From an uncultured Gammaproteobacteria bacterium (GTDB taxonomy: Bacteria > Pseudomonadota > Gammaproteobacteria > UBA9214), in the NCBI GenBank assembly GCA_963773065.1, contig CAVYZN010000019.1:1-64000 (forward strand): a DNA stretch of 64,000 nt. The letters run 5' to 3'. The number at the start of each line of letters is the position of its first letter. Position 1 is the first letter of the stretch. Made by a program: the position numbers and the translations under genes. Shown piece by piece: positions 16,931 through 62,386 of this stretch. Under the pieces are notes generated by a model, which was given only the letters and a program-made list of their open reading frames with translations, was not told the origin of the DNA and ran no database searches.

Positions 16931-18937
16931 GTGGACTTTGGGAAAAATGGATGTTTATACTTTCTTGTATCTCATGCTGCTAACGTTCTCCCACCGGATG
17001 AGGGCCCAGCGATTCAGACTTTTCAGCGTGCGCCCGGCACACCCGCACTGCCGGCCACCCCGTTCCGCTTCATCTGTTATTTCGTAGCAGATACCGCTGG
17101 TGGTATCTCGGCATGCTGGTGTTTGAGACCGCCAACGCCACATGCGGCATCATGATCCCCTACGCGCTCTCGCGCATCATCAAGAGCGTGACCACGGCGC
17201 AGGAAACCTCGATGGCGGTGGTTGCCCATCTGCGGGGGCCGTTGCTGCTGTTCGTCGCCTTGTGTGTGGGTGAACTGGTATTCGGCCGGCTGGCCGGCGC
17301 CATCCAGATCCGCCTCGGTCCGCGCCAGCGCCAGAGCGTGACGCGCATCGTTTATCATTACTTACAGCATCACTCTTATCGTTATTTCAGTAGCAACTTC
17401 GCGGGTGCGCTCGCGCATCGCATATCGGAAACCTCAATGGGCGTGACACAGACACTGTGGGCGCTGATCACCGAATTCTGGCCTATCGCCATCGCGATCA
17501 CTGTTGCGGTGGCGCTGTTGTTCCAGGCGCATGCGCAGTTGGGCTATTTGCGCTGGCCTGGGCGATATTCTTTATCGGCGTGTCTTTTCTGCTGGCCAGG
17601 CGTTGCCGGCCGTATGCTCAGGCGGCCGCGGCCACGCGCAGCGAGACCACCGGCACGGTGGTCGATTCGGTGACCAATCTCACCAGCGCGCGGCTATTCG
17701 CGCGCCTGGGCTTCGAGCGCGAGAATCTGGAGCACAATCTGATGCGCGAGATGAAGGCCATCCTAATATCCCATAAGTACTCCGAGGGCATTCGCTGGTT
17801 CCAGTTTTCGGCGGCGGCAGTGCTCAAGGTTGGGCTGCTGTACTACGCCTTGCGTCTGTGGGGACAGGGGCAGATCGGCGTCGGCGACTTCGTCATGGCG
17901 GTCAGCCTGTCGCTGCTCGTCATCAACGAGGCGCGCAATCTGAGCCGGCGCTTCCTGGAATTCTTCGAATACGTGGGCAACGTTTCCAACGGCGTGTACA
18001 CCATCGTGCGCGCGCACGAACTGATCGATACGCCGCAGGCTAAGGCCATCCCCATCCGCCGGGGCGACATCGAGTTTCGTGAAGTCGATTTCGGCTACAC
18101 GCCGGGGCGCAAGGTCTTCGACAAACTCAGCGTGCACATCCCGGCCGGCCAGCGCGTGGGCCTGGTGGGCTTGTCGGGCTCGGGCAAGTCGAGCTTCGTG
18201 AGCCTGATCCTGCGCCTCTACGATCCACAGGGCGGCCGGATCCTCATCGATGGCGTCGATATCCGCAGCATGACGCAGGATTCACTGCACACGCAGTTGA
18301 GCCTGATCCCGCAGGACCCCGGGTTGTTTCACCGCACGCTGCGCGAGAATATCCGCTACGGCCGGCTAGAGGCGAGCGACGAGGAGGTGGCCGTGGCCGC
18401 GCGCAAGGCGCATGCGCACGAATTCATTGCGCAGATCAAGGAAGGCTAGATTCACTGGTCGGCGAGCGCGGCGTCAAGCTCTCCGGCGGGCAGCGCCAGC
18501 GCATCGCGATCGCTCGCGTCATCCTCAAGAATGCGCCCATCCTGATCCTGGATAAAGCCACCTCGGCCTTGGATTCCATCACCGAGCACGCGATCCAGGA
18601 CACGCTCAATACGGTGATGCGCGGCAAGACCGTCATCGTCGTTGCGCACCGGCTCTCGACCATTGCCCACATGGATCGCATACTGGTGTTCGATGACGGC
18701 CGCATCATCGAGGATGGGTCGCATACCGAACTGCTGGCGCAGGGCGGCGCCTATTACCGTCTGTGGAGCCGGCAGGCGGGCGGCTTCCTGCCCGAGGCCA
18801 TCGGCGGCGAATCCGCCGGCAAGACGGGAGGCCTGGCCACCTTGTCGGCGCACGAGGGCGGGTTGCTGATCGTCGACAAGGACATCCATGAAGACGATGA
18901 CGAACCCGACGCCCCGGCGCCGCCGCCGCTGGTGTAA
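16931..18937 (+). CDS. ABC exporter, fused permease/ATP-binding protein (several frameshifts)
   Basis: TM domain; Walker A GLSGSGKS; [13 protein letters not shown] at ~18480; VAHRLST; pieces 16931..17155, 17113..17673, 17457..18449, 18569..18937. Confidence 0.88.
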
Positions 18938-19124
18938 GGCGCATATCGAGATGACTTCCAGGCGGGCGACAAGCGCATCAGCCTGTACGTGTTCGGCGAT
19001 GATTTCTCCAGCCCGATCTTCGCCGCGCTGATGTGCAAGCGGGCCGAGAACAACAACGGCGGCTTCGTGGGGCTCAGCAGCAAGCATTCCGCAGTTTCAA
19101 ATTCGATCAGCCTGTCGTGAGAAC

Positions 19125-19338
19125 GACATCGTCGCCTCCCGCATCATCGGCCAGTTCGAGGGCACCATCGAAAAGATCGTGGCCCTGGCCGCGCTCATGC
19201 CCATCGTGGCAAGCGTCGGTGGCAATACCGGCCAGCAAACCCTGGCCCTGATGATCCAGGGCATGGCCCTGAAACAGGTAAATTCCGGCAACTTCCGCTA
19301 CCTGCTGAGCAAGGAAGTGGGTGTGGCTTTGATTTTTC
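19125..19338 (+). pseudogene. mgtE membrane-domain fragment, interrupted by ISL3 and resuming at 20973-21012
   Basis: SRIIGQFEGTIEKIVALAALMPIVASVGGNTGQQTLAL...KEVGVAL, then IFLGLAASFLSV* after the IS; resembles intact MgtE at 37292..38599. Confidence 0.8.
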
Positions 19339-19373
19339 GGCTATTCCGCACAAAATGTGGGTAGCCGGTGTGG

Positions 19374-19688
19374 CTAGTTGAGGTTTTTAAGGAAGATATT
19401 TCTTCCTATTTTGACACAGCGTTTGACCTTGGCTTGTCCCTCTGTGGTGGGCATGAGATGGCCACATTTTCGGTATTGATCAAGTTCAACACGGTAGACA
19501 TCGATGCGTCTGCCGGCGAGCCTGCCATTAAGATCGACTGGGTAGGTGGCGATCTTACGTTTGAGCGAAGTGCTTGAGCACTGCTCGCAGATGCCAGAGG
19601 TGGCGTGGGGGTTTTTGCGCTTGAGTAGGGTGAGCCAGTTCCGCATACTCCGATTTTCCCAGAACTGGATGATCCATGCACCTTGCAT
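19374..19688 (-). CDS. YgiT/MqsA-type zinc-finger-like passenger protein
   Basis: CEQC...RIDVYRVELDQYRKCGH; one Cys of the second pair replaced by Tyr; start probably ~19646. Confidence 0.55.
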   Translation of the reverse strand: MQGAWIIQFWENRSMRNWLTLLKRKNPHATSGICEQCSSTSLKRKIATYPVDLNGRLAGRRIDVYRVELDQYRKCGHLMPTTEGQAKVKRCVKIGRNIFLKNLN

Positions 19689-20967
19689 TGAAGACGCTGC
19701 TCAACCGCGTTGAGCCGATGAAGGGGTTTGTCTATGAGTCGAGCCGAATCAGCACGGCGGTTGGCACTCGAAGGGGGAGCTTGTCCGCCTGTGTGCCGAG
19801 CATCGAGATCGGTCTTCGCGCGCATCAGGGCAAGCATGGCAAGTGCTCGCAGTGCCTGTTGCCGGCGCCGGGGTACGACAGGCTGGCGGAGCGGTGCTTT
19901 CAATTTGTGCCACTGTGGGGAATGACGACTTGGTTCGTGTACGCGCCACGGCGGCTGGAGTGCGTTCGGTGGGGTATTCACGTGGAGCATCTACCGTGGG
20001 CCTTGGGCAAGCGCCCGGTCACGCAGAGTTTTGCCTGGTTCCTCGCCAGTTGGGCCAAACTGCTGAGCTGGCAGGTGGTATCCCGGCGCTTCCAGACCAG
20101 CTGGGAGAGCGTATTTCGCTCCGTCGAGATGGCGGTGATCTGGGGACGCGAACGCTGGATCTCACCGGTATTTCGGCTATCGGCGTGGATGAAATCTACT
20201 GGAAGAAGGGCAAGTTCCTCACGCTGGTGTATCAGATCAACCAGGGTATGAAGCGGCTGTTGTTTGTCATCGAGGATCGACAAGAGAAGAGCCTGCGTAA
20301 GTTCTTCGTCTGGTTCGGCAAGGAACGTAGTGCGCTCATCGAGTTCGTCTGCTCGGACATGTGGAAGCCCTATCTTAATGTCATCGCCAAGCACGCACCC
20401 AACGCGCTGAACATCCTGGATCGCTATCACATTGCCGCCAAGATGAACAAAGCCATCGATGAGGTTCGCGCGAAGGAAACACACGCTCTGAAACTCCTCG
20501 CTAAAGGAGCGAAGGTGATCCTCACGCACTCGCGCTGGTGTCTGTTGAAGCGCCCTGAGAACTTGAACGAGAACCAGGCGACCAAGCTCAAGGATCTGCT
20601 CTTGTACAACCTGAAATCCATACGGGCCTACCTGCTCAAGGAAGAGTTCCAGCTGTTTTGGGAGTATGTCTCCCCGGCGTGGGCGGAAAAGTTCCTGGAC
20701 CAATGGTGCAAAAAGGTGATGCGATCGCGCCTTGAGCCGATGAAGAAGATCGCACGGCCAGGATCCGTACGCACAAGCAGCATCATCCTGAACTGGTTCG
20801 AGGCGCGCGATGAAGTCTCACTCGGCGCAGTCGAGGGCCTGAACAACAAACTCAAGGCGAGTATCAGAACATCCTACGGATTTCGAACCGCGAAGGCGAT
20901 AAAGATTATGCTTTATCATAAACTTGGGGCGCTACCCGAGCCACAGCTCACCGACAGATTCGGTTAG
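19676..20967 (+). CDS. ISL3 transposase (frameshift near 20155)
   Basis: Zn-finger CSQC; IGVDE, CSDMWKPY, LDRYH, VEGLNNKLK, YGFR. Confidence 0.92.
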
Positions 20968-21297
20968 GATCTGATTTTTCTCGGTCTCGCCGCAAGCTTT
21001 CTCAGCGTCTGAGCGATGGGCTGATGCTGCGGCTGACCCGGTGTTCTTCGACCCGTTGTAGTCCTTAGAACAAAATGCCGGAATGGCTGAAACGCAGGGA
21101 AAACCGGACGTTCACATCGTTATAGAACTCGTACTATAGTAATCGTACGTGCTATCGGTTGGGGTAAATGACAACGGGCGAAGATCCCTGCCATGTTGAA
21201 CGGCATTCATAACAATGCCTGCTTTACTAACGACTGGCACGCATATGTGGCCCGCCGGCTCGAGATTCCGTCCGCGCCGGACCCGAAGGAGAATGAT

Positions 21298-22236
21298 ATG
21301 ACCGACTCCAGCGCGAGCCACCCTGCCTGGCCCGAACTGCCGTACACGGCATGGGTGGAAAGCTGTACCACGCTGCATCTTTGGACCCAGGTCGTCGGCA
21401 AGGTCCGTCTAGCCAAGTCGACCTGGATTAACCACTCCTGGCACGTGACCCTCTATGTGACCGCGCGGGGACTGACCACCTCCCCGATCCCGGACGGCCA
21501 GCGTCAGTTCCAGATCGACTTCGATTTCATCGATCACCGGCTGCTGGTGTCTGTGAGCAATGGCGAGACCAGGAGCCTGCCGCTGGCCCCGATGTCGGTT
21601 GCGGATTTCTACCAGGGCTTGATGGGATTGCTTGCGGAATTGGATATAGACGTAAGCATCCATGAATTGCCAAACGAGATTCCGGACCCGGTCCCGTTCA
21701 GCCAGGACCATGTTCACGCCGCCTACGACGCCGACTACGCCAATCGGTACTGGCGGGTACTGCTGCAGGTGGACCGCGTGCTCAAGGAATTCCGGGCGTG
21801 TTTCACAGGCAAGTGCAGCCCGGTCCACTTCTTCTGGGGCAGCAATGACATGGCGGTCACGCGCTTCTCCGGAGGACTGCGCCGCAACATCCGGGGGGCA
21901 TTCCCCATCTGCCGGATCGCGTGACCCGCGAGGCCTATTCACACGAGGTCAGCAGCGCGGGCTTCTGGCCTGGGGGCGGTCCCATCGACTATGCCGCTTT
22001 CTACTCCTACGCCTATCCGGTGCCCGAGGGCTTCGCCGATCAGCCGGTCGGTCCGGAGGCGGCATTCTTCCACGATGACTTGGGCGAATTCCTCTTGCCC
22101 TACGACTGCCGTGCGGACCGCCACCGATCCTGACGCGACGCTACTCCGGTTTCTGCAAAGCACCTACGAAGCGGCGGCGAGGACCGCTGACTGGGATCGA
22201 GCGGCTCTGGAGCGTGAGCCCGGGCCGCCGACTTAG
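21298..22236 (+). CDS. DUF5996 family protein (frameshifts)
   Basis: TLHLWTQVVGKVRL, NHSWHVTLY, SPVHFFWGS, EAYSHEVSSAGFWPG. Confidence 0.85.
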
Positions 22237-22537
22237 CCGCGCTGGTAATGACCGATTACAGTAGACCTGCCGTTCCCATGAATTATGCGAATGACGTGTT
22301 CTGGCCGTTATGTACAATGTCGACCAATGTGCAGTGCGGTCGCTCATCTCCGACCCACCCGGTGCCGGGCCGGCCACGCTGCGGATACGCGTGCCGTGAC
22401 AGACAACCCACGGAATGAACTGTTGCCGCCAGCCAATTCGGCCAGACTCCAGTGTCGTCATACCGGCTGTGGTCGTCGGCAATCGACTCCAATATCTGCC
22501 ATTCATGCGTCGTTGGACTTGGACCCCGATTCCACCG

Positions 22538-23587
22538 CTAATGGCTGTGCCGGTGGTGCGTATCCGGAAAGTGGGGATGCGTATGTGTTAATGCTCCGTG
22601 CCGATGTAGATGGCGATGCTTTGTTCCTGGTGCAATTGGAACGTTGTGATTGTGCTGGTGATGTTCGTCATGAACATGTTCATGCTCATGCACGATATCC
22701 TCATGAGTGTGTTCGTGCTCATGGCGCTCGCTGAGATGTAGCCATGCGCCCAATGCCATCAAGGCACCGGCGGCGAGCAATTGAACCGTGACGGGGTCAC
22801 CCATAAGCACAGCCACCAGCGCACCGAAGAACGGTGCGACGGAGAAATAGGCTCCGGTCCGGGCCGTCCCAAGATGACGTAAGCCGACTACGAATAACAC
22901 CAGACTCACACCGTAGGCAAGCAGACCAACGATTAATGCCCCTGCCAGGTTGGGCAGGGTTGGCATGGATGCGCCCAGGTACAAGGCCAGAATCAGATTG
23001 ACAGTGCCGGATACCAGGCCTTTCACGGCGGCGATCCATGTGGCATCGGCAAGCGAAATCTTGCGGGTGAGGTTGTTGTCAACACCCCACGCGAAACAGG
23101 CGCCCAAAACCGCAAGCGAGGACCACAGACCGGTGATCCGCGCTTCTCCCGGCCAACTTAGAACGACTGCGCCGGCGACGATTGCCATCATCCCCAGCGC
23201 AATGCGTCGGTCGAAATTTTCCTTGAAAACGAACCATGCCAGCAATGCGGTGAATGCGCCTTCGGCATTCAGAAGCAGAGAAGCGCCCGATGCAGGCATG
23301 CCCGTCAGACCGATCATAAGAAGCACAGGGCCAACGATACCGCCCACCAGAATTGCTCCCGCAAACCAGGACAGCTCGTTCCGTTGAAGATGAACGGCAG
23401 GCGCCCTGACCAAGCGCCGATAGAGCGTCAATCCTAGACCAGCCCCCAGATAGAGTAAGCCCGCCATCATCCAGGGACTGATGGCGTCAAGCAGCCACTT
23501 CGCAAGTGGGGTTCCAGCGCCAAACAACACTGCCGCCCCGAGAGCCGCGGAAATGCCCGACTGACGAAACGTCTTTTTCGATTCCAT
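22538..23587 (-). CDS. EamA/DMT transporter with His-rich C-terminal tail
   Basis: About 10 TMs, DNNLTRK, GTARTGAYFS, tail HEHEHTHE...HPHFPDTHHRHSH. Confidence 0.9.
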   Translation of the reverse strand: MESKKTFRQSGISAALGAAVLFGAGTPLAKWLLDAISPWMMAGLLYLGAGLGLTLYRRLVRAPAVHLQRNELSWFAGAILVGGIVGPVLLMIGLTGMPASGASLLLNAEGAFTALLAWFVFKENFDRRIALGMMAIVAGAVVLSWPGEARITGLWSSLAVLGACFAWGVDNNLTRKISLADATWIAAVKGLVSGTVNLILALYLGASMPTLPNLAGALIVGLLAYGVSLVLFVVGLRHLGTARTGAYFSVAPFFGALVAVLMGDPVTVQLLAAGALMALGAWLHLSERHEHEHTHEDIVHEHEHVHDEHHQHNHNVPIAPGTKHRHLHRHGALTHTHPHFPDTHHRHSH

Positions 23588-53869: not shown

Positions 53870-54562
53870 CTAATCTTCCGACTGCTGGCTGACGGCCTTG
53901 ATCCCCTTGTAGGGAATGAACAGCCCGCAACCGAAATAGCGGCAGGATCCCAGGCCGTGCTGCTGCAAGCGAAGAGATTCCTCCGCGGCGAGATCGGCCA
54001 CCATCAGGCTGCGGGTGGTGAGCGGACCGTCCGTGGTGTTGATCACGCCGATCCGGCCGGGCAGCATCTTGCGTACCAGGATGCCCAGCCGCTGCAACTG
54101 GTCCGCCGCCGCCTGCAGGAAACCGTCCTCGTCATCCGCGCTCAGCGCCACGTTACGGGAATAGAGCGTGGCGTTCGGCAGCAATGGTCTCACGACGGGT
54201 GCCGCGGTAACGACCAGGTGCTGTCCGCGCACATCGAGCCGTTGCCCGACCAGCGCTTTAGCGTCGTCCGCGCGGTGGCGCGGAACCCGGATCACCAGGC
54301 GCGTGCGCTTCGACAGATGCAGCAGATCGTCGGCGCCGGCGGGACGCTCCCAGCCATGCGCGGAGATCGCGACCTGGATCGGGTGCACGCCGGCGCCCTC
54401 CTCATCCGGCAACCAGGACAGCACCTGCGCAACCGCCTGGCCCAACGCATAGTTGTGATCGACCGGCAGATAGTGGCAGTCGATCGGATAGACCAGATCG
54501 ACCACGTCATCCGGCCAACTCACCGTGTCTTTCTTTTTACGTTCTTCCCAGTACATCGTCAT
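53870..54562 (-). CDS. Stand-alone Cas6/Cmx6 (type I-MYXAN-like) RAMP protein
   Basis: VVDL...LPVDHNYAL, LSKRTRL, C-terminal G-loop LQQHGLGSCRYFGCGLFIP. Confidence 0.85.
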   Translation of the reverse strand: MTMYWEERKKKDTVSWPDDVVDLVYPIDCHYLPVDHNYALGQAVAQVLSWLPDEEGAGVHPIQVAISAHGWERPAGADDLLHLSKRTRLVIRVPRHRADDAKALVGQRLDVRGQHLVVTAAPVVRPLLPNATLYSRNVALSADDEDGFLQAAADQLQRLGILVRKMLPGRIGVINTTDGPLTTRSLMVADLAAEESLRLQQHGLGSCRYFGCGLFIPYKGIKAVSQQSED

Positions 54563-54589
54563 TCCTGTTTCATAACACGCCCAGGCCGC

Positions 54590-57500
54590 CTAATCACTAT
54601 CCCGCTGCCCCGCCGCGCCCGTGGATTCCGGCCCGGACCTGCCCGGCGGTTGGAAATGGACCGCATGCCACAGGCCGTGGGTGGTGAAACAGGTCCAGCC
54701 CCATTTCAGCCAGCGCAGCAGGGAGAGCGCCAGCCAGAGCGCCCAGGCGAGCATCAGGAAACGATAGAACAGGATCGGCACCGATACGATCCAGGCTTGC
54801 GGCAGGATCTCTCCGGCGCGGTCCTGGTACCAGTTCAGCGCATAGGCCGTCGACTCATTGCCCGCGACCTGCATCTCCGGCAGACCGAGCAGCCCCGTCT
54901 CGACGGCCGAATACAGCATCACCAGGGCAACCAGGGTCAACAGGCCAAGCCCGATCTGGGCGAGATTGAAAACTCTGGTGTCGCGCTCCGGTTCCAGCCT
55001 CGCCCGCAGTCCAAGCGCCAGCAGCCAGCCCACCACGATCAGGCCGACCTGGATGGGGGACTGGCTGAGACCGATGCCGAGCAGAAACCAATGCCGCATT
55101 CTAAGCGGCGTCAGGCCGGTGCGCGCCAGCCCGAAGGACACCAGCACGATGATCGCGATGACGGACCAGTACAAAACCGCCGGCCCCAGTCGCGGGCCAC
55201 CGGCCCACAGCAGCCAGCGGTTCTCCCCCAGCGTAAGCGTGATCGAACTGTTGACGCTGGGCGCACCCAGGTCCGCCGCGGGTGTCCTGAAGTAGTTATT
55301 GATACCCGCCGGTTCGCGCCATTGCAGCGCCACGTGCTGCGTACCCGGGGAAACCGGCAGGGTTACGGCGCGCCCCTCCTGGCGGATCGGCTGGGCCCGA
55401 TCGTCGATGGTCACCGCCTGGAGCTGTGCTCCTTCCGGGAGTCGCAGCGTGTGCTGTCCTCCCTGGCTGCTGCGCAGGGTGAAACCGAGATCGACGTCGG
55501 TGGAGCGCATACCGGGGCTGACCTCGATCCGGCTGGCATCGATGGTCAGGGTCGGGCCTTCTCTCGCCTCGGGCCGCGTGATGGCAAGCCGTATCTCCTC
55601 CCACGGCCAGGGCCGCCATTGCGGCAACCAGGTGCTGTCGCGGTCCTGGTGGTGCGTCACGGCGATCCCGGAGGTGACGACATGCCAGACGGGGCTGATC
55701 TCCGCCTGCCACACCTCGCTCCAGGACAGGGTGTCCGGCGCGCGCAGGGTCAGCACCGGGCGCTTGTCGAGCCTTGAACTCCACCAGAAGACCTGTTGGC
55801 CGGCGGGCAGACTCACCTGCACCTGGCCGTCGTTCACGCGCACGCCTTCGCTGATCACCGCCTCGCCGTCGAGCAGCGGCACTTCCAGCACGATGGCGTT
55901 GTCGGCCGGCGACAGGCGCACGACGCGCGTCTCCACGCTCCAGTCCAGTCCGAGGTGCAGGGTGCGCTCGACCCGGACAAACGGCGGCAGCGTGCCCGGC
56001 TCCAGTGCGGACAATTCCCCGGCGCCTGCGCCGCTCACCCGTGTGAATTGCAGCGGCCCATCCGCGATGCCACCCTCGTTCAGACCGGCAATGGCCCAAC
56101 CTTCTGATTCGATCTCAATCCGGTGCGGTCTCAGCGGCAGCGGCAACTGAAAGGTATCGCGCGGCGGCACGGGACCCGCCAGCGTGAGCTGGTGGCGGCC
56201 GCGCGGCAGTTCGATCCACAACTCGCCCGCGGGTGTGCGGAACAGGGCGGCTGCCGGCGCACCGTCCACCGCCACCTGCGCCGGAAGCCACTGCCGTGTA
56301 TCGGCCGGCAAAACCACCGCGGTATCCTCCAGGGCATGTATCTCGATGCGGGCCTGCAGCGACTTCTCGTTCAACACGATCCGCATGAGTGGAATCTGGG
56401 CGCAGGCGGGCAGGCATCGGGGGGGTTCCAGCAGGCGCGTCTTAAGCTCCTGCAGCAAACCGGTGTCCGGGTAATCAGCCTTGCCGTCGGGCGGCGCGAG
56501 CAGCAACAGGGGCGCAAGGAGCAGTGCACTCGCCACGGCCCCGGTCCGGGACGGCCAGTCGAATCCATGGCCCGGTTTCCAAGACAGCAGGCGTAACGCC
56601 AACGCACTCACCAGCAACACCCGCAGCAGGTTAAGCGCGAGGTTGACCGGGGGTGAGAGCAGCGTGAGATTGAGGGTCTGTCCCCGCTCCACCGGCCCGT
56701 TCCAGCTCAGGCCGACGTACGTCCAGCGCCAGTCCGGCAGGCCCGGCCCGGTCTGTATCCTGGCCTTCGGGTCGATGCTCTCGAATACCGATTTGGCGTT
56801 CGACTTAACCTCCGACACGGCCGCCTCCCCCGACTCGGTCGCCATCTCCTTGCGCAGGACGGGTTCATTCCTGCCGGACGACGCAGGCGCCAGGGACTGC
56901 GCGGGCATCGCCTGATCGTAAACGGCCATCGGGCCGCCGGGGCTCTCCAACTGGGGGTAGATGCCGGTACGGACTTCATCAACCAGGAACGGCACCGCGA
57001 TCACGGCGAGGGCCAGCAGGCCGAGATTGCGGTACCACATTACGGCGGCGCGGAAGCGGTTGGGTGGCAGAACCCGCAGCAGCGCGATGGCCGCCAGAAT
57101 GTTGAGCCACACGAAGCGCGGCGCAGCCGGTTCGTGCCAGATGAGCGCCAGTGTCAGCAGCGCCAGCAATCCCCAGGGCCAGCCCCACAGACGCATCACG
57201 GCCAGGGCCCCCATCAACACCAGGAACAGATCCAGCAGGGTCCAACGCTGCAGCCATGTCGTGGTGACCTGATCGACGCCGGTCGCCGCCAGCAGTTTCC
57301 AGCCGGGCGGCAGGTTCAGCGTGGCGCTCACCTGCTGGAAATCGTGGTCCCAGCCCGCGACCGGCAGCGTGCCGGTCGCGCCGTCATAACGACTGTCCGC
57401 GCTGAGGCGGATGGCGCCGCGGCGCACTTCGACGCCGGCCTCATTCGAGTCGGGCAGGGTCGTGATCAGTTGCGGCATGCCGTCGATGACGACCTGGCCG

Positions 57501-58669
57501 AGTTGGATGCCAGGCTCGGCCTCCAGGCGCCAGGCGCTCGTCATGCTGCCGGAAATCTCGTCCCGCAGCGTGTAGCCCTTGCCGTCGAAATCGAGCCACA
57601 GGGTGCGGCCAAGTACCAGCCGATCCGGCTCGGGCTCGGGATCGCCGCGCCGGATCACCTTGAAGCGCAGGGTATCATCCGGCAGGACGCGATAGGCCGG
57701 AAGGTTCCGCCAGTCCGTCGGCAAACGCGTCTGGCTGGGATCGACGGCCGCCAACCCTTCCAGCTCCACGAGGCGCAGGCTGTTGTTCGCCTCGAAGACC
57801 CACACCTCTTCTCCGGGCCACGGGGCGCCCTCGGCCGTGCGGGACAGTTCCGTGACATAGCCACTGGCGCGGGCGGCCACCTCCACCGTCCAGCGGCCCG
57901 GGCGCACCTGCACACGCAGCCGTCCGTCCGGTTCGAGTCGCGCCGGAATCTGGCTGGTGATGCGCAGCGGCAGAAAGCCTTCCAGCAGCGTCTTGCCGAG
58001 GATCACCTCACGCTGCACGCCCGAAACATCCATGTCGATGCGGGTCAGCACCTGCAGCGGGTTGTCATCGACGATGCGGCGAAAGACCTGGAGTTCGAGG
58101 CGGTCCCCGTCCTGTGTCTGATCACCGGCCTGCCGTCCGCGCAGCCACAAGCGGCCATCCCCCTCCAGTTCGGGAAACGCCACCTCCGCCCCGTCGACGC
58201 TCAGCGCGAGCAGTCCCGAAGCCGGCGGTATCTGCAGCGTTTCCGGCAACCGCTCCCACAGGAACTGACCCTCCACGCGGTAGCCGCCCGCCGGCAACCG
58301 GAGGGCGGGCCTACCCTCGTCAAGGCTCACCAATCCGGGTTCGCCATTGACCGTCACCGTCTGCGGCCAGTGTTCGGCATCGCCGGGAAGCTGGAGCCAG
58401 GATTCGGCATAGAGCTGCCACTGCTGCGTGAATCGCCCGCCCGTGTCGTCCAGTTTCAATTCCAGGCGGGCCGGCCAGGCGCAATGGCGCTGCGGCGCAT
58501 TGTAGAGAAAGGGACACTGCGCCTGCGGCGTATCGTGCAATACCCAGTCCACCCATGGCCGCAGCGGCTCCGGGACCTGAACCGCCGGGACCTGAACCGC
58601 GGCGCCTGCACGAACGGACTGGAAAGGAATGCAGAGCAGAACCAGCGGAATGAGCCATCGGTGTCGCAT
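54590..58669 (-). CDS. Large (~1360 aa) uncharacterised membrane protein with internal duplication
   Basis: Signal peptide MRHRWLIPLV, VPEPLRPWVDWV, two beta-rich extracytoplasmic halves each followed by a TM cluster. Confidence 0.85.
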   Translation of the reverse strand: MRHRWLIPLVLLCIPFQSVRAGAAVQVPAVQVPEPLRPWVDWVLHDTPQAQCPFLYNAPQRHCAWPARLELKLDDTGGRFTQQWQLYAESWLQLPGDAEHWPQTVTVNGEPGLVSLDEGRPALRLPAGGYRVEGQFLWERLPETLQIPPASGLLALSVDGAEVAFPELEGDGRLWLRGRQAGDQTQDGDRLELQVFRRIVDDNPLQVLTRIDMDVSGVQREVILGKTLLEGFLPLRITSQIPARLEPDGRLRVQVRPGRWTVEVAARASGYVTELSRTAEGAPWPGEEVWVFEANNSLRLVELEGLAAVDPSQTRLPTDWRNLPAYRVLPDDTLRFKVIRRGDPEPEPDRLVLGRTLWLDFDGKGYTLRDEISGSMTSAWRLEAEPGIQLGQVVIDGMPQLITTLPDSNEAGVEVRRGAIRLSADSRYDGATGTLPVAGWDHDFQQVSATLNLPPGWKLLAATGVDQVTTTWLQRWTLLDLFLVLMGALAVMRLWGWPWGLLALLTLALIWHEPAAPRFVWLNILAAIALLRVLPPNRFRAAVMWYRNLGLLALAVIAVPFLVDEVRTGIYPQLESPGGPMAVYDQAMPAQSLAPASSGRNEPVLRKEMATESGEAAVSEVKSNAKSVFESIDPKARIQTGPGLPDWRWTYVGLSWNGPVERGQTLNLTLLSPPVNLALNLLRVLLVSALALRLLSWKPGHGFDWPSRTGAVASALLLAPLLLLAPPDGKADYPDTGLLQELKTRLLEPPRCLPACAQIPLMRIVLNEKSLQARIEIHALEDTAVVLPADTRQWLPAQVAVDGAPAAALFRTPAGELWIELPRGRHQLTLAGPVPPRDTFQLPLPLRPHRIEIESEGWAIAGLNEGGIADGPLQFTRVSGAGAGELSALEPGTLPPFVRVERTLHLGLDWSVETRVVRLSPADNAIVLEVPLLDGEAVISEGVRVNDGQVQVSLPAGQQVFWWSSRLDKRPVLTLRAPDTLSWSEVWQAEISPVWHVVTSGIAVTHHQDRDSTWLPQWRPWPWEEIRLAITRPEAREGPTLTIDASRIEVSPGMRSTDVDLGFTLRSSQGGQHTLRLPEGAQLQAVTIDDRAQPIRQEGRAVTLPVSPGTQHVALQWREPAGINNYFRTPAADLGAPSVNSSITLTLGENRWLLWAGGPRLGPAVLYWSVIAIIVLVSFGLARTGLTPLRMRHWFLLGIGLSQSPIQVGLIVVGWLLALGLRARLEPERDTRVFNLAQIGLGLLTLVALVMLYSAVETGLLGLPEMQVAGNESTAYALNWYQDRAGEILPQAWIVSVPILFYRFLMLAWALWLALSLLRWLKWGWTCFTTHGLWHAVHFQPPGRSGPESTGAAGQRDSD

Positions 58670-58974
58670 GCGGAGCCTCGCCTCAAGGATGAAGGGACGG
58701 AAATGTCGGTGCCGCCTGCCGGGGACGCACAGCGAACCCGGGCAGAGCGGGAATCTACCGGATATTCGTCCGGGTGGCCAATCCTGTCTGAGCGGCATCA
58801 GGAAATATATTTCGCGCACGACGGCGGGAGGGACGGTGACGACACCGGCGGCGGGGACCAGGCGACCACCCTCACCAATAAGGTCAGGTGATTGACAGAC
58901 AGTGCAGAGCAAGGAATCCGGCAGGAACCGGCCGCGCGGAGATCATGGGCAGCGGCGGTGCTTCCTTGCAAAAT

Positions 58975-59098: not shown

Positions 59099-60720
59099 TC
59101 TCTTATGACTTTACTGTTGACAGAAATGGCGAAGAGTTTGTTACTTTGCAGTGGCCAAAGCGGGAACGATACTGAATTCCGTGAGCGAGCAGGCGGCGGC
59201 GATGGCGGCGCGCCCCAAGCGCGTGAGGTAGTAACGATAAGTTCCGGTGACCCGTTTGATCACGCCGAGGGCAAGCAGCCGTTTCAGCTCTCGCGAGAGC
59301 GCAGCCGCCGAGGCGTGGGGCAGCAAAGCCATCAGATCGGCGCGCCGCAGACCGTGGATATTGAACTGCGGACGTTGCAGTGCCCGCAGCAGTTGCTGCT
59401 CGGTGCGCTTGAAGAAGTTCAGGCCCTTGATCGGCCGGTCGCTCTCGCACCGCTCGTCGGTCAGACGCGAGAGCGCGCGCTGTCCGGCGCTGTGATCGTC
59501 CAGCGCGGACAGATACTCCAGGTAGCGGCGATTGCATCCCAGGAGGATCTGGCGCAGATCGATCAGGCTGTAGATGGATTTCTTCAGCGGCGCCAGTTGC
59601 CGCGTGCTGGGTCTATCTCGATGTTCCACCTTGCGGTGGTGCTTGAAGAAGGAGACGTCGTTGACGGTGGTTTCGATGCGCAGCACACGGGCGTATTTGT
59701 CGTACATCTTCACCTGAACCTTGCCCAGGCGATGTTTGATGCAGGTCCCTTCGATGCGGGTGGCAAAGCGGTTGCCGATCTCCTGCGCCAGCGGCGGGGT
59801 GATCTTCTTGCCGAGAAAGGTGGCAATCTGTTCGGCCTTCACCCCCAGCACCGCCTGGCGGGAGAGCTGTTCATACAGGGGCGCCAGCATCTCTTGGGAG
59901 CGGAACACCAGATCGGTAGCGTACTCCACCTGCAGCAGGCTCCAGTGATAGCCTTGCCCGAAGCTCTTGTGCACCGGGCAGCACTGGCGCGCGTAACGAT
60001 CCAGGATGCGGTGCAGTTGCTCGGGCTTGAAGCCATCGGCCAACTGTTGCGCGCGCGCGAAGTCATCCAGGCGCACAAAGGCATTGTCCACCTGGGTAAA
60101 GCCGATGCGCCGGGTTTTAAGCTTCTGCGCCAGCCAACCATGGCCGTTGCAATAGAACTGCAATTTGAACGGGCACCAAGTCGGCACCCGCAGGTAACAC
60201 AGGCCGACGAGCGGGTCGATGAAGTAAAAATAGTAGTGCAGGCATTTGCCCGTATCGGGCTTGAGGTAGGTCTTGCCGCTCGCCTTGTCATGCCAGGGCT
60301 TGTAGCTTTGACAGGCTTCCATCGCCGAAATGATGTGCACCAGACCCGGATGATCGCCGCGCCGCTCAAGCACCTTGGCGACCACATCTTCCTTGCGGAT
60401 GTGGGCTTTGGCGATATGCTCGATCTCGATCCCCGCCGACTGCGCCAGCTCCTGCGCGCGCTCGCGGAGCGCCTCGCGCAAGGGCTCGGCAAACCGGGGA
60501 TAGTCGAAAATCCGAATGCCCCTCGCGTACAAAAACGCCGTCATGCCCTGCGCATAGCAGGCCCCCGGCAACGTGCCCGTCATCACGATGCGGTCGTAAC
60601 AGGAGAGCACCCCATGCAACCGATCTGCGTACCGTTCCACCAACGCCTGTGTCATCGTCGCCACCACCGCTTAGCCCGTGCGTACAATACCTCTTCCTGT
60701 TTGGTTCCGGCTATGCCGGC
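59099..60720 (-). mobile_element. IS-like element without terminal IRs, flanked by TTAG and inserted in a GTTAGGC integron core site
   Basis: TTAG at 59095-59098 and 60721-60724; removal restores tacGTTAGGCgtc; subterminal hairpin CCGGC-TAT-GCCGG at 60707-60719. Confidence 0.8.
59141..60667 (-). CDS. Putative transposase of an unclassified family (Rep_trans-like motif, C-terminal HTH)
   Basis: Fills the element; CLHYYFY, QVEYATD, KMYDK-x4-LRIETTVND, C-terminal winged-helix-like ALSRELKRLLALGVIKRV. Confidence 0.75.
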   Translation of the reverse strand: MVATMTQALVERYADRLHGVLSCYDRIVMTGTLPGACYAQGMTAFLYARGIRIFDYPRFAEPLREALRERAQELAQSAGIEIEHIAKAHIRKEDVVAKVLERRGDHPGLVHIISAMEACQSYKPWHDKASGKTYLKPDTGKCLHYYFYFIDPLVGLCYLRVPTWCPFKLQFYCNGHGWLAQKLKTRRIGFTQVDNAFVRLDDFARAQQLADGFKPEQLHRILDRYARQCCPVHKSFGQGYHWSLLQVEYATDLVFRSQEMLAPLYEQLSRQAVLGVKAEQIATFLGKKITPPLAQEIGNRFATRIEGTCIKHRLGKVQVKMYDKYARVLRIETTVNDVSFFKHHRKVEHRDRPSTRQLAPLKKSIYSLIDLRQILLGCNRRYLEYLSALDDHSAGQRALSRLTDERCESDRPIKGLNFFKRTEQQLLRALQRPQFNIHGLRRADLMALLPHASAAALSRELKRLLALGVIKRVTGTYRYYLTRLGRAAIAAACSLTEFSIVPALATAK

Positions 60721-60732
60721 TTAGGCGTCTCC

Positions 60733-61306
60733 ATGTCGGCACATAGTCCCGAAGTCGCAAAGAAGTTCTGCCAACTTTGCGATTGGCTTCTTCAGGTCTG
60801 GCAGATGCGGAAGTTCCTGTTCGACGAGAACACCGACGTGGCCGTTCTCAGAAAGCCGAGACATGCGCACTTCTTCTTTCGATTGCAAGAAGTCCTGCAA
60901 GAGAACTGGTTGCATCAGTTGGCCAAGCTTCACGACCCTGCCGTACAAGGTGGCCCGAAGGGGCATATCAATCTCTCCGTTGAGTACATGATTGAATACG
61001 GCCAGTGGGACACTTCGATCAAAGCCGAGTTGCTTTCATTGCAGACGGAGATGCTTCGTCTGGCAAAGCCCATTAAGTACGCACGCAACAAGGTCCTTTC
61101 GCACAACGATCTTGCTATCTTGCTGGCCGATCAAGAACTAGGTGCGTTTGATCCCGGAGAAGACGAGAATCTACTTCGAGGCACTTCGCTCTTTTGCTTC
61201 GGTTGTGTCGGAGCGGGTTCTTGGTGAACCATTCACGTACGATGATCTGGTAGCGAACGATGTCGCCATGTTCATGCACGATTTTCTTCGTGGCGCCGAC
61301 GCCTAA
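60733..61306 (+). CDS. HEPN domain protein, AbiU2-like, in a gene cassette (frameshift near 61170)
   Basis: LAKLHDP, RNKVLSH (Rx5H); bounded by complementary TTAGGCGTC (60721) and GACGCCTAA (61298-61306); lower GC. Confidence 0.75.
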
Positions 61307-61903
61307 TCGGATAGCCGGGGGGTTCTCCCCCCCGGCCTCCACAACACCCCGCATGCGGGTCCGCACGGGGCGTTTCCTTCAGAGTGAAAAGGACCGCCAT
61401 TGACTGGCGACCATCAACGCTGGCTACGTGGCGAACCGCCAACGCCGTTTCACCCGCTCGGGTGTCCTACGGCCGTTGAGGCTCGCACGGCTCGCTCGTT
61501 GCCGAAGGTTCAGGCCTTCACCGTGTCCCACCCATTACGGTGGGCGTTTGGCTACTATGCCGTCTGCTGACTTCTGTCCCGTCACACCAAGCGTTACCGC
61601 AGGGCGCGCTGCTCGAGTCACGGTAGGGTTCGATGGTAATTCCAGTCCTTTCGGACTGGCCCTCAGTTCGACTCCCGTAGCGGCACGAGCCGCACGCGGG
61701 ACAAATCTCCCCGGATAAGAACATGAACTTTCCGTGCACAACCGCCGCATTTACCCTATCCCCTGCACCTGACGGGTTTCGTCATCTTGTGCTGACTCAC
61801 CCGGGGACTGAGCCTTCTATCTATGCGGTTTCTGTTCGTCGGCTCGCACCTTTGCGCTCGGGCTTCCTTCAGACATCCCCTCGCGGGTTTGCCCTTGCCG
61901 TTC
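61306..61903 (-). ncRNA. Group IIC intron, ORF-less and 5'-truncated, inserted in attC
   Basis: Short domain V GAAACGCCCCGTGCGGACCCGCATGCGGGGTGT with CGC triad, domain VI ending CTATCCGAT, AGAAGTCAGCAGACGGCATAGTAG and GAAGGCCTGAAC motifs; domain IV only ~140 nt. Confidence 0.88.
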
Positions 61904-62386
61904 CGAATACGGCGGATGCGGATGACGACAACGACGGGCTCTCAGACAGCCTGGAGGCCTCCCTCGGGACCAATCCCCTGCGTGCGGATACCGACGGCGA
62001 CGGTCTGACGGACTATGACGAAGTCGCCTGGGGCGGCAATGCTTCAATCTACACTCCGGGTGTGCATCCTCAACCCGCTGGCCGCCGACACGGACACCGA
62101 CGGCTTCAGGGACGGCATGGAGTTCGCGGCGGGCTACAATCCGTTGAGCGCCGCGAGCTTCCCGGTATGGGGCGACATCAACGACGACCGGGTCGTCGAC
62201 ACGGCCGATGTGCTGCTCGCTACGCGTGCCGTCCTCGGGCTGGTGACGCTGACCGGCGCCGAACTGGCGCGCGGCAACGTCGCGCCGCTCGTCAACGGAA
62301 CGCCCCACCCGCCTGCCGTCGATGCCTTCGATCTCGCCGATCTCCTGCTGATCGAGCGCAAGGCGCTGGGTGAGGTTGCCTACTGA
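61904..62386 (+). pseudogene. C-terminal fragment of a secreted protein with Ca-binding DxDxDG repeats and a dockerin-like domain
   Basis: DADDDNDGLSD, GTNPLRADTDGDGLTD, GDINDDRVVDTADVLL, DLADLLLIERKALG; no start codon, abuts the intron. Confidence 0.7.

Follow-up and report, generated by a model that had tools for sequence, protein, structure and literature searches.

The minus strand at 61306-61902 of the window, i.e. the whole 64,000-nt stretch of gammaproteobacterial DNA under analysis, very probably represents a 5′-truncated and inactive copy of a group IIC-attC intron devoid of an open reading frame (ORF), and the copy belongs to a family of IIC-attC mini-introns that are probably mobilised in trans. 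As such, the window copy appears to be an ordinary dead fragment, and intact copies of the same mini-intron were identified in many further gammaproteobacterial genomes. The features of the region are, in order of position:

60733-61306, forward strand: HEPN_AbiU2-type gene with a frameshift near 61190 and a TAA stop at 61304-61306
61301-61305, forward strand: GCCTA, the half that is left of a presumed attC R″ core (GCCTAAC), equal to the 3′ exon TAGGC on the intron strand
61306-61375, minus strand: domains V and VI with the intron 3′ end at 61306 (RF00029), the pairs of both domains covarying across the family (helices 30 and 31)
61376-61512, minus strand: domain IV without ORF, 137 nt, with a long stem, collinear in all 18 rows of the family alignment A1
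61513-61719, minus strand: domain II (short form), J2/3 and domain III
61720-61902, minus strand: the 3′ four-fifths of domain I
61899-61902, no strand: breakpoint, where intron homology ends at 61901/61902 and TSP3-gene homology starts at 61899
61903-62386, forward strand: 3′ part of a TSP3-repeat gene (PF18884 TSP3_bac, E 2.1e-15), with no start and with a frameshift near 62070

An earlier note on this DNA had taken the region for an antisense group II intron and had proposed an Rfam search, which covered most of a group II intron with three minus-strand matches, all above the cut-off and in agreement with that assignment:

61890-61720, minus strand: group-II-D1D4-3 (RF02001), 126 bits, cut-off 32
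61608-61513, minus strand: group-II-D1D4-1 (RF01998), 61.3 bits, cut-off 35
61375-61306, minus strand: Intron_gpII D5-D6 (RF00029), 42.6 bits, cut-off 40, model positions 1-77 in a local search

The conserved cores of domains I to III were detected by the first two of these models. Domain V is short with CGC at the triad position, domain VI has its bulged A visible in the RF00029 alignment, and its terminal ..CCGAT at 61306 is followed on the minus strand by TAGGC, so that the class C features named in the earlier note could all be read in the sequence, as could the complement of the last intron base as the third base of the TAA stop of the HEPN gene. The short form of domain II matches four rows of alignment A1 (L040a, L040b, L043 and L063). 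A candidate EBS1 loop, ACAA, is located at 61787-61790 in a domain I hairpin, and domain I contains a 4-nt insertion at ca. 61816-61819, which is missing from the relatives.

Between the end of domain III at 61513 and the start of domain V at 61375 there are 137 nt, where about 140 nt had been estimated earlier. The longest minus-strand ORF within the element codes for 73 amino acids, and none of the four matches obtained with an IIC-attC reverse transcriptase (RT) query in the whole assembly was on the window contig. Because of this short gap, the short ORF and the lack of an RT match on the contig, the window copy has no RT gene, as the earlier note had it.

The earlier note had also placed the intron's 5′ end at 61903, which did not hold. 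A DNA search with the window intron over 61 genomes, including the window's own, gave matches in 18, and all seven relatives' matches that reached the 5′ part of the query started at query base 9 or 10, i.e. at window position 61902/61901. In six relatives, the upstream sequence consisted of ca. 95-105 further intron nucleotides, starting with GTACG right behind TTGT, which in turn was preceded by an imperfect, attC-type hairpin. Counted along L034, the 5′-complete relative nearest to it (96% identity over 203 nt), the window copy starts at nt 101/102, and in the family alignment at column 95; the missing ca. 100 nt are present in all 16 full-length copies. No 5′ splice site with a GUACG/GUGYG-type start was found at 61903, domain I of the window copy being incomplete, and beyond 61903 there was neither AC nor an attC hairpin, the place being taken by the TSP3-repeat gene fragment. 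Of the insertion site proposed earlier, GCCTA/AC, the GCCTA side was accordingly retained and the AC side was not. Without its 5′ splice site, the beginning of domain I and an exon with the hairpin, the window copy would be unable to splice or move.

Intron and TSP3-gene homologies overlap by 3-4 nt at 61899-61902, and such an overlap is a signature of illegitimate recombination, at a junction known from the assembly alone. Relatives were found for either side of the junction, and past it they go on differently from the window. Two contigs from RNA libraries (607 and 568 nt) aligned with the window from 61388/61415 to 61901 at ca. 95% identity and continued past 61901 into true intron 5′ sequence. 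They originate from two soil libraries of one study (X15 and X16, with depths of 83 and 63) and comprise an ORF-less relative from its 5′ region through domain IV; they show presence in RNA libraries, and are not proof of transcription. On the other side, a DNA contig (X2 record 26) aligned with 61899-62300 and extended upstream into more of a TSP3-repeat gene; it carries a single additional C behind 62070, at the point where the TSP3 reading frame of the window breaks. These contigs come from relatives; none of the public sequencing runs contained more than 21% of the sampled words. The TSP3 fragment also gave a weak Dockerin_1 match (E 0.0039), which was below the cut-off. Both genes flanking the intron remnant are frameshifted (61190 and 62070), and many other ORFs of the window match only parts of their Pfam models; these are possibly assembly indels or real decay.

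The HEPN gene was recovered in two frames, 60649/60733-61227 and 61142-61306, the first of which matched PF18734 HEPN_AbiU2 (E 2.3e-09, 37.4 bits, cut-off 26.8). The gene was not found in the genomes of 60 relatives, which fits an acquired cassette. The window copy is oriented opposite to it; position +1 is a T, and of R″ the GCCTA half is present, with the TTGT and hairpin side deleted. The motif GCCTAAC occurred five times in the window against 4.1 expected, i.e. without enrichment, and no attC was recognised by eye upstream of the gene in 60600-60735. Because of these two results, together with the loss of the attC hairpin, the HEPN gene is here termed a presumed cassette. Of the earlier location of the intron in the attC of a HEPN cassette, the GCCTA half-site was confirmed; for the rest, with no hairpin left, the location follows from the behaviour of the family. 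By motif count and by eye, no row of attC sites was found near the window copy, the one attC-like hairpin being on contig C28, and none of six matches to the integron integrase model TIGR02249 in the window's genome exceeded the cut-off of 265 bits (best 81.8 bits).

Further upstream, a Cas6 gene (PF09559, E 2.2e-58) adjoins an ORF of 1440 amino acids (53870-58912), for which no Pfam or NCBIfam family was obtained. An ORF of 508 amino acids at 59141-60667 on the minus strand, divergent from the HEPN gene, was likewise without a Pfam or NCBIfam family, and its sole match was a weak HxlR-like helix-turn-helix at the C-terminus (E 0.015).

Relatives of the window copy were searched for with a 22-nt stretch at the border of domains III and IV in one genome per species, in total 185,579 species. 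The scan produced 25 loci, 24 of them with an intron and in 13 other genomes; the remaining locus (L049) was rejected as a chance match with no intron. The hosts include Rhabdochromatium marinum, Allochromatium palmeri, Thiorhodococcus drewsii and Candidatus Thiosymbion oneisti, as well as a Thiohalocapsa metagenome-assembled genome (MAG), a Competibacteraceae MAG and several MAGs of uncultured Gammaproteobacteria. Within the loci, the anchor motifs followed each other in the order 5′ end, domain I, domain III, domain V and 3′ end, with domain V ca. 150 nt behind the domain III anchor. After removal of overlapping loci, 16 distinct full-length ORF-less copies of 686-830 nt were counted in nine genomes, all with different flanks.

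Alignment A1 was composed of these 16 copies, the window copy and one copy from another genome of the same genus (G001:C98), which has the same short domain IV and 88% identity, and which resides at a different site with a larger and different 5′ truncation. The window copy was 80-90% identical to the other rows. Because domain IV is collinear in all 18 rows at unrelated sites, and because its stem covaries, the ORF was absent before the copies spread; by this alignment, the missing ORF is a trait of the family, not local decay. The option that the ORF was lost after insertion, which the earlier note had left standing, is thereby not supported, and the ragged deletion that would have indicated simple decay applies to the 5′ end of the window copy, not to its ORF.

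Two further loci showed deletions of other kinds. In L037 (G003:C392, 2350-2560), which is cut off early in domain IV, an internal deletion joins the 5′ ca. 95 nt directly to J2/3 and domain III at a short repeated motif, and this deletion begins at the same place as the breakpoint of the window copy. L052 (R. marinum scaffold0029, reverse strand 120-1570) is 5′-truncated, and its 5′ part, from domain II to the start of domain IV, resembles the ORF-less family. Its RT, which is without the N-terminal part and frameshifted, and its domains V and VI resemble the RT-bearing type, so L052 may be an intermediate or a recombinant.

RNAalifold predicted 192 pairs on A1, and 97.9% of the cells formed standard pairs. 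Changes on both sides were seen in 39 pairs, against 20.0 +/- 2.8 in shuffled alignments (0 of 500 reached 39) and 6-9 with slid partners; as the tested structure was itself obtained from A1, it has an advantage over the slid controls. The stem of domain IV (helix 27) had the most compensatory changes, in 11 of its 19 pairs. Non-standard pairs amounted to 2.1% or less in 13 of the 16 full-length copies. The body of the window copy is hardly decayed, with standard pairing retained at 160 of 163 scorable positions of the structure.

A full-length RT-bearing relative (L035) was located in a genome of the same genus, in an attC bottom strand at TTGT/TAGGC, with an open frame of 459 codons in which RVT_1 and GIIM were recognised in 414 amino acids. 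An RT related to it was present in all five tested host genomes of ORF-less copies, at 61-64% identity across 412 residues or as many of these as were available. The frame was intact and full-length in three of them (G061, G064 and G065), had an internal TAA in G062 and ran into contig ends in G063. Within ca. 4 kb of an ORF-less copy, the RT is found in G061 and G065. The ribozymes of RT-bearing relatives were 78-87% identical to those of the ORF-less family over nt 1-510, reaching 99% over nt 1-288 in G065. For the region of ca. nt 510-684, BLAST against six RT-bearing relatives gave no match that would indicate ORF remnants in the ORF-less domain IV. As domain IV has no such match, an origin of the family by ORF deletion is put forward here as a presumption.

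The target sites of the family fit the published IIC-attC consensus TTGT/T in R″ on the attC bottom strand, as given in the available text of PMC7923331; insertion into the attC bottom strand is also stated in that of PMC3001079. The first 3′ exon base was T in 15 of 16 full-length copies, and TAGGC followed in five. The 5′ flanks ended with GT in ten copies, with GTG in four and with AT in one, and one copy was situated behind another intron. By eye on dot-bracket structures, a long imperfect hairpin was seen near the site in 12 of 15 folded 5′ flanks, and the folding z-score against shuffles was -2.8 or lower in six of the 15. The candidate EBS1 loop covaries with the flanking exon, as retrohoming by the ORF-less RNA itself predicts. 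A flank ending with GTG was found in all four copies with the loop CACA, an association that represents fewer than four independent events because three of these copies are close kin, and in none of 11 scorable copies with the loops ACAA or ACGA, the twelfth such copy (L061b) being behind another intron copy. The single ACGA copy had the flank TCGT, and the ACAA copies had flanks ending with ..GT. In Rhabdochromatium marinum and Allochromatium palmeri (L044, L045 and L061/L062), ORF-less copies followed one another head to tail and without any spacer. Of such copies, the upstream one had the loop CACA and a flank ending with GTG, and the downstream one was without its first G in two cases. The tandems look as if occupied sites were entered by the CACA variant at a distance of one base.

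In the window's own genome (G000), which is 91% complete with 6.3% contamination and of which an RT or integrase could be unassembled, BLAST and Rfam searches of the whole assembly found no further full copies, and the best RT match was 38-39% identical and belonged to other introns. The BLAST search for ORF-less copies at other sites and for an RT-encoding parent, as suggested in the earlier note, hence returned no cognate RT and the following fragments only:

C28:120456-120551: fragment of the lineage, intron nt 1-96
C2: fragment of the lineage, ca. 60 nt of domain I
C17: fragment of the lineage, ca. 34 nt of the 5′ end
C26: fragment of the lineage, domains V and VI (RT-bearing type, 79%)

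Given these fragments, the absence of a cognate RT and of an integrase above the cut-off, and the 91% completeness, the lineage appears to be dead in this genome. Other group II pieces were found on C5, C8, C11 and C27, and unrelated class C introns with RT on C10 in two copies. The C10 introns (18624-20559 and 21258-23193) are identical, with a frame of 452 amino acids (GIIM 60.7 bits), and the same GC-rich hairpin immediately precedes each of them; with an RT that is 38% identical, they fall outside the attC lineage. At C11:115094-115823 (L011 844-1573), matches to RF02005 (D1D4-6, 91 bits) and RF00029 (42.3 bits) were only ca. 400 nt apart, and a group II intron of a different class, likewise ORF-less, may be present there. 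For loci L002 and L003, no Rfam match was obtained at E ≤0.01.

The C28 piece is located behind an attC-like hairpin and TTGT (locus L081 3841-6619, corresponding to C28:119840-122618), and ends 4-5 nt short of the start of the window copy. It adjoins an Unstab_antitox gene (E 1.2e-13) and a weak ParE-like gene (E 0.0028) on the other strand. At a distance of 1-3 kb there are also a Y2_Tnp gene of the IS91 type and a Tn5-type transposase that contains a DruA domain. As the first 96 nt exist on C28 and stop only 4-5 nt ahead of the window copy, the intron may have had its 5′ part moved rather than deleted. Joined together, the two pieces would give a HEPN cassette, an intron in its attC and a toxin-antitoxin cassette. 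A simple inversion linking C19 and C28 was rejected, when the sequence past the C28 breakpoint encodes no TSP3 repeats in any frame. A single intron may have been split in one event, or two copies may each have broken at a spot prone to breakage.

The events leading to the present arrangement may be reconstructed as follows. A complete mini-intron of ca. 700 nt would have reverse-spliced at (T)TGT/TAGGC into the bottom strand of the attC behind the HEPN_AbiU2 gene and opposite to that gene, with the reverse transcriptase supplied by an RT-bearing relative. Illegitimate recombination at the 3-4 nt of microhomology would later have removed or moved the first ca. 100 nt of the intron, including the 5′ splice site and the start of domain I, together with the attC hairpin and the 5′ part of the TSP3/dockerin gene. 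The family as such would be a non-autonomous retroelement, which has kept the ribozyme and a structured domain IV, selects its target by its own EBS1 loop and receives the protein in trans. We infer the order of events, the supply of RT in trans and a role of domain IV as protein-binding site, as well as the mobility of the ORF-less family, from the comparisons above. The proposal of the earlier note, a non-autonomous mini-intron mobilised in trans, is in this form supported for the family by the 16 copies in nine genomes, the covariation, the fit of EBS1 and the RT relatives in five of five hosts, and fails for the window copy, from which the ca. 100 nt of 5′ end and the attC hairpin are missing, as is a cognate RT.

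Three other explanations were weighed against a truncated copy of an ORF-less intron. That the window copy is complete and still mobilisable, with its 5′ end at 61903, would agree with the good preservation of its 3′ two-thirds, as seen in the standard pairs and the high Rfam scores; the lack of a GUACG/GUGYG-type start, the ca. 100 nt missing in comparison with every full-length copy, the lost hairpin exon and the failure to find a cognate RT in the genome make this hardly credible. Nearly as improbable is the insertion of an RT-bearing intron which then lost its ORF in place by deletion. The window copy has indeed undergone a deletion elsewhere at least once, namely at the 5′ end, and L037 and L052 carry assorted deletions of their own, but the collinearity of domain IV with the 16 full-length copies and G001:C98 at unrelated sites, together with the covarying stem, speaks against an ORF loss at this one site.

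The junction at 61899-61902 could also be an assembly chimera, the real intron being complete and perhaps continuous with the 5′ piece on C28. The contamination of the bin would allow for this, and so would the complementary nt 1-96 behind an attC-like hairpin and beside a toxin-antitoxin pair on C28, with the two breakpoints 4-5 nt apart. However, 3-4 nt of overlap do not lead an assembler to join sequences, the piece on C28 is in its turn fused to unrelated sequence, and the relatives of both flanks continue in their own ways, which leaves a chimera unlikely. A 5′-truncated copy of an ORF-less IIC-attC intron therefore remains the preferred reading.

Regarding known systems, the IIC-attC introns described in the available texts of PMC3001079 and PMC7923331 (S.ma.I2 and relatives) are alike in having a class C ribozyme with a short domain V and the CGC triad, and, like the relatives of the family (L035 and others), they are located at R″ in the bottom strand of attC and run against the direction of the cassette genes. 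They differ in encoding their own RT, whereas the ORF-less family has a structured domain IV of ca. 150 nt with no ORF, and the window copy differs further by the lack of its 5′ end. A 5′-truncated IIC-attC copy as such is already reported in the text available of PMC7923331: UHB.F1, from a soda-lake cassette array, is likewise opposite to its neighbouring cassettes but still carries a frameshifted RT gene, when the window copy would never have had one at its site.

By analogy, the closest precedent at the family level for ORF-less introns mobilised in trans is TeI3 of Thermosynechococcus elongatus, for which PMC2882425, in its available part, describes ORF-less copies that share one deletion and pair well with their exons, and an experimentally shown mobilisation by ‘driver’ proteins. 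As characterised there, TeI3 is a chloroplast-like IIB intron with sequence-defined sites in one genome; the ORF-less family in turn is of class C, targets attC hairpins in at least nine genomes of several genera and is known from sequence alone, and ORF remnants in its domain IV are not clearly recognisable. Non-coding ‘ORF-less’ integron cassettes (PMC8876359, available part) are similar in having several hundred gene-free bases between attC sites, yet these are described as cassettes, some with promoters, when the family comprises ribozyme-bearing retroelements inside an attC.

A review from 2015 (PMC4424553) regards bacterial ORF-less group II introns as rare, with few judged to be overlooked, and a survey from 2022 (PMC8919778) reports them as increased in certain genomes, with attC unmentioned, both in their available portions. 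No description of an ORF-less IIC-attC family was found in a full-text literature search, which covered main texts, some key earlier work lying outside. Against the ‘rare, few overlooked’ of the review, as far as its available text goes, a single 22-nt probe sufficed for 16 complete ORF-less copies in nine genomes.

The conserved, covarying structure and the targets that follow the loop point to a non-autonomous retroelement on integron recombination sites. We lean, with due reserve, towards a family of actively mobile, protein-less IIC-attC mini-introns of ca. 690-755 nt that live as parasites on the reverse transcriptases of autonomous relatives and move from one integron attC site to another in several genera of purple sulfur bacteria and in related uncultured Gammaproteobacteria, with a CACA variant of EBS1 retargeted to occupied sites and building head-to-tail tandems. 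If this is true, such elements would be annotated as non-coding cassettes. The window copy matters only as a marker, in that such elements would decay by truncation once the RT partner is gone. If confirmed, the family would constitute a second natural system of a ‘driver’ RT and ORF-less introns beside that of Thermosynechococcus, and one in class C, could explain some of the non-coding cassettes in environmental integrons, and would bear on the proposed participation of IIC-attC introns in the formation of cassettes.
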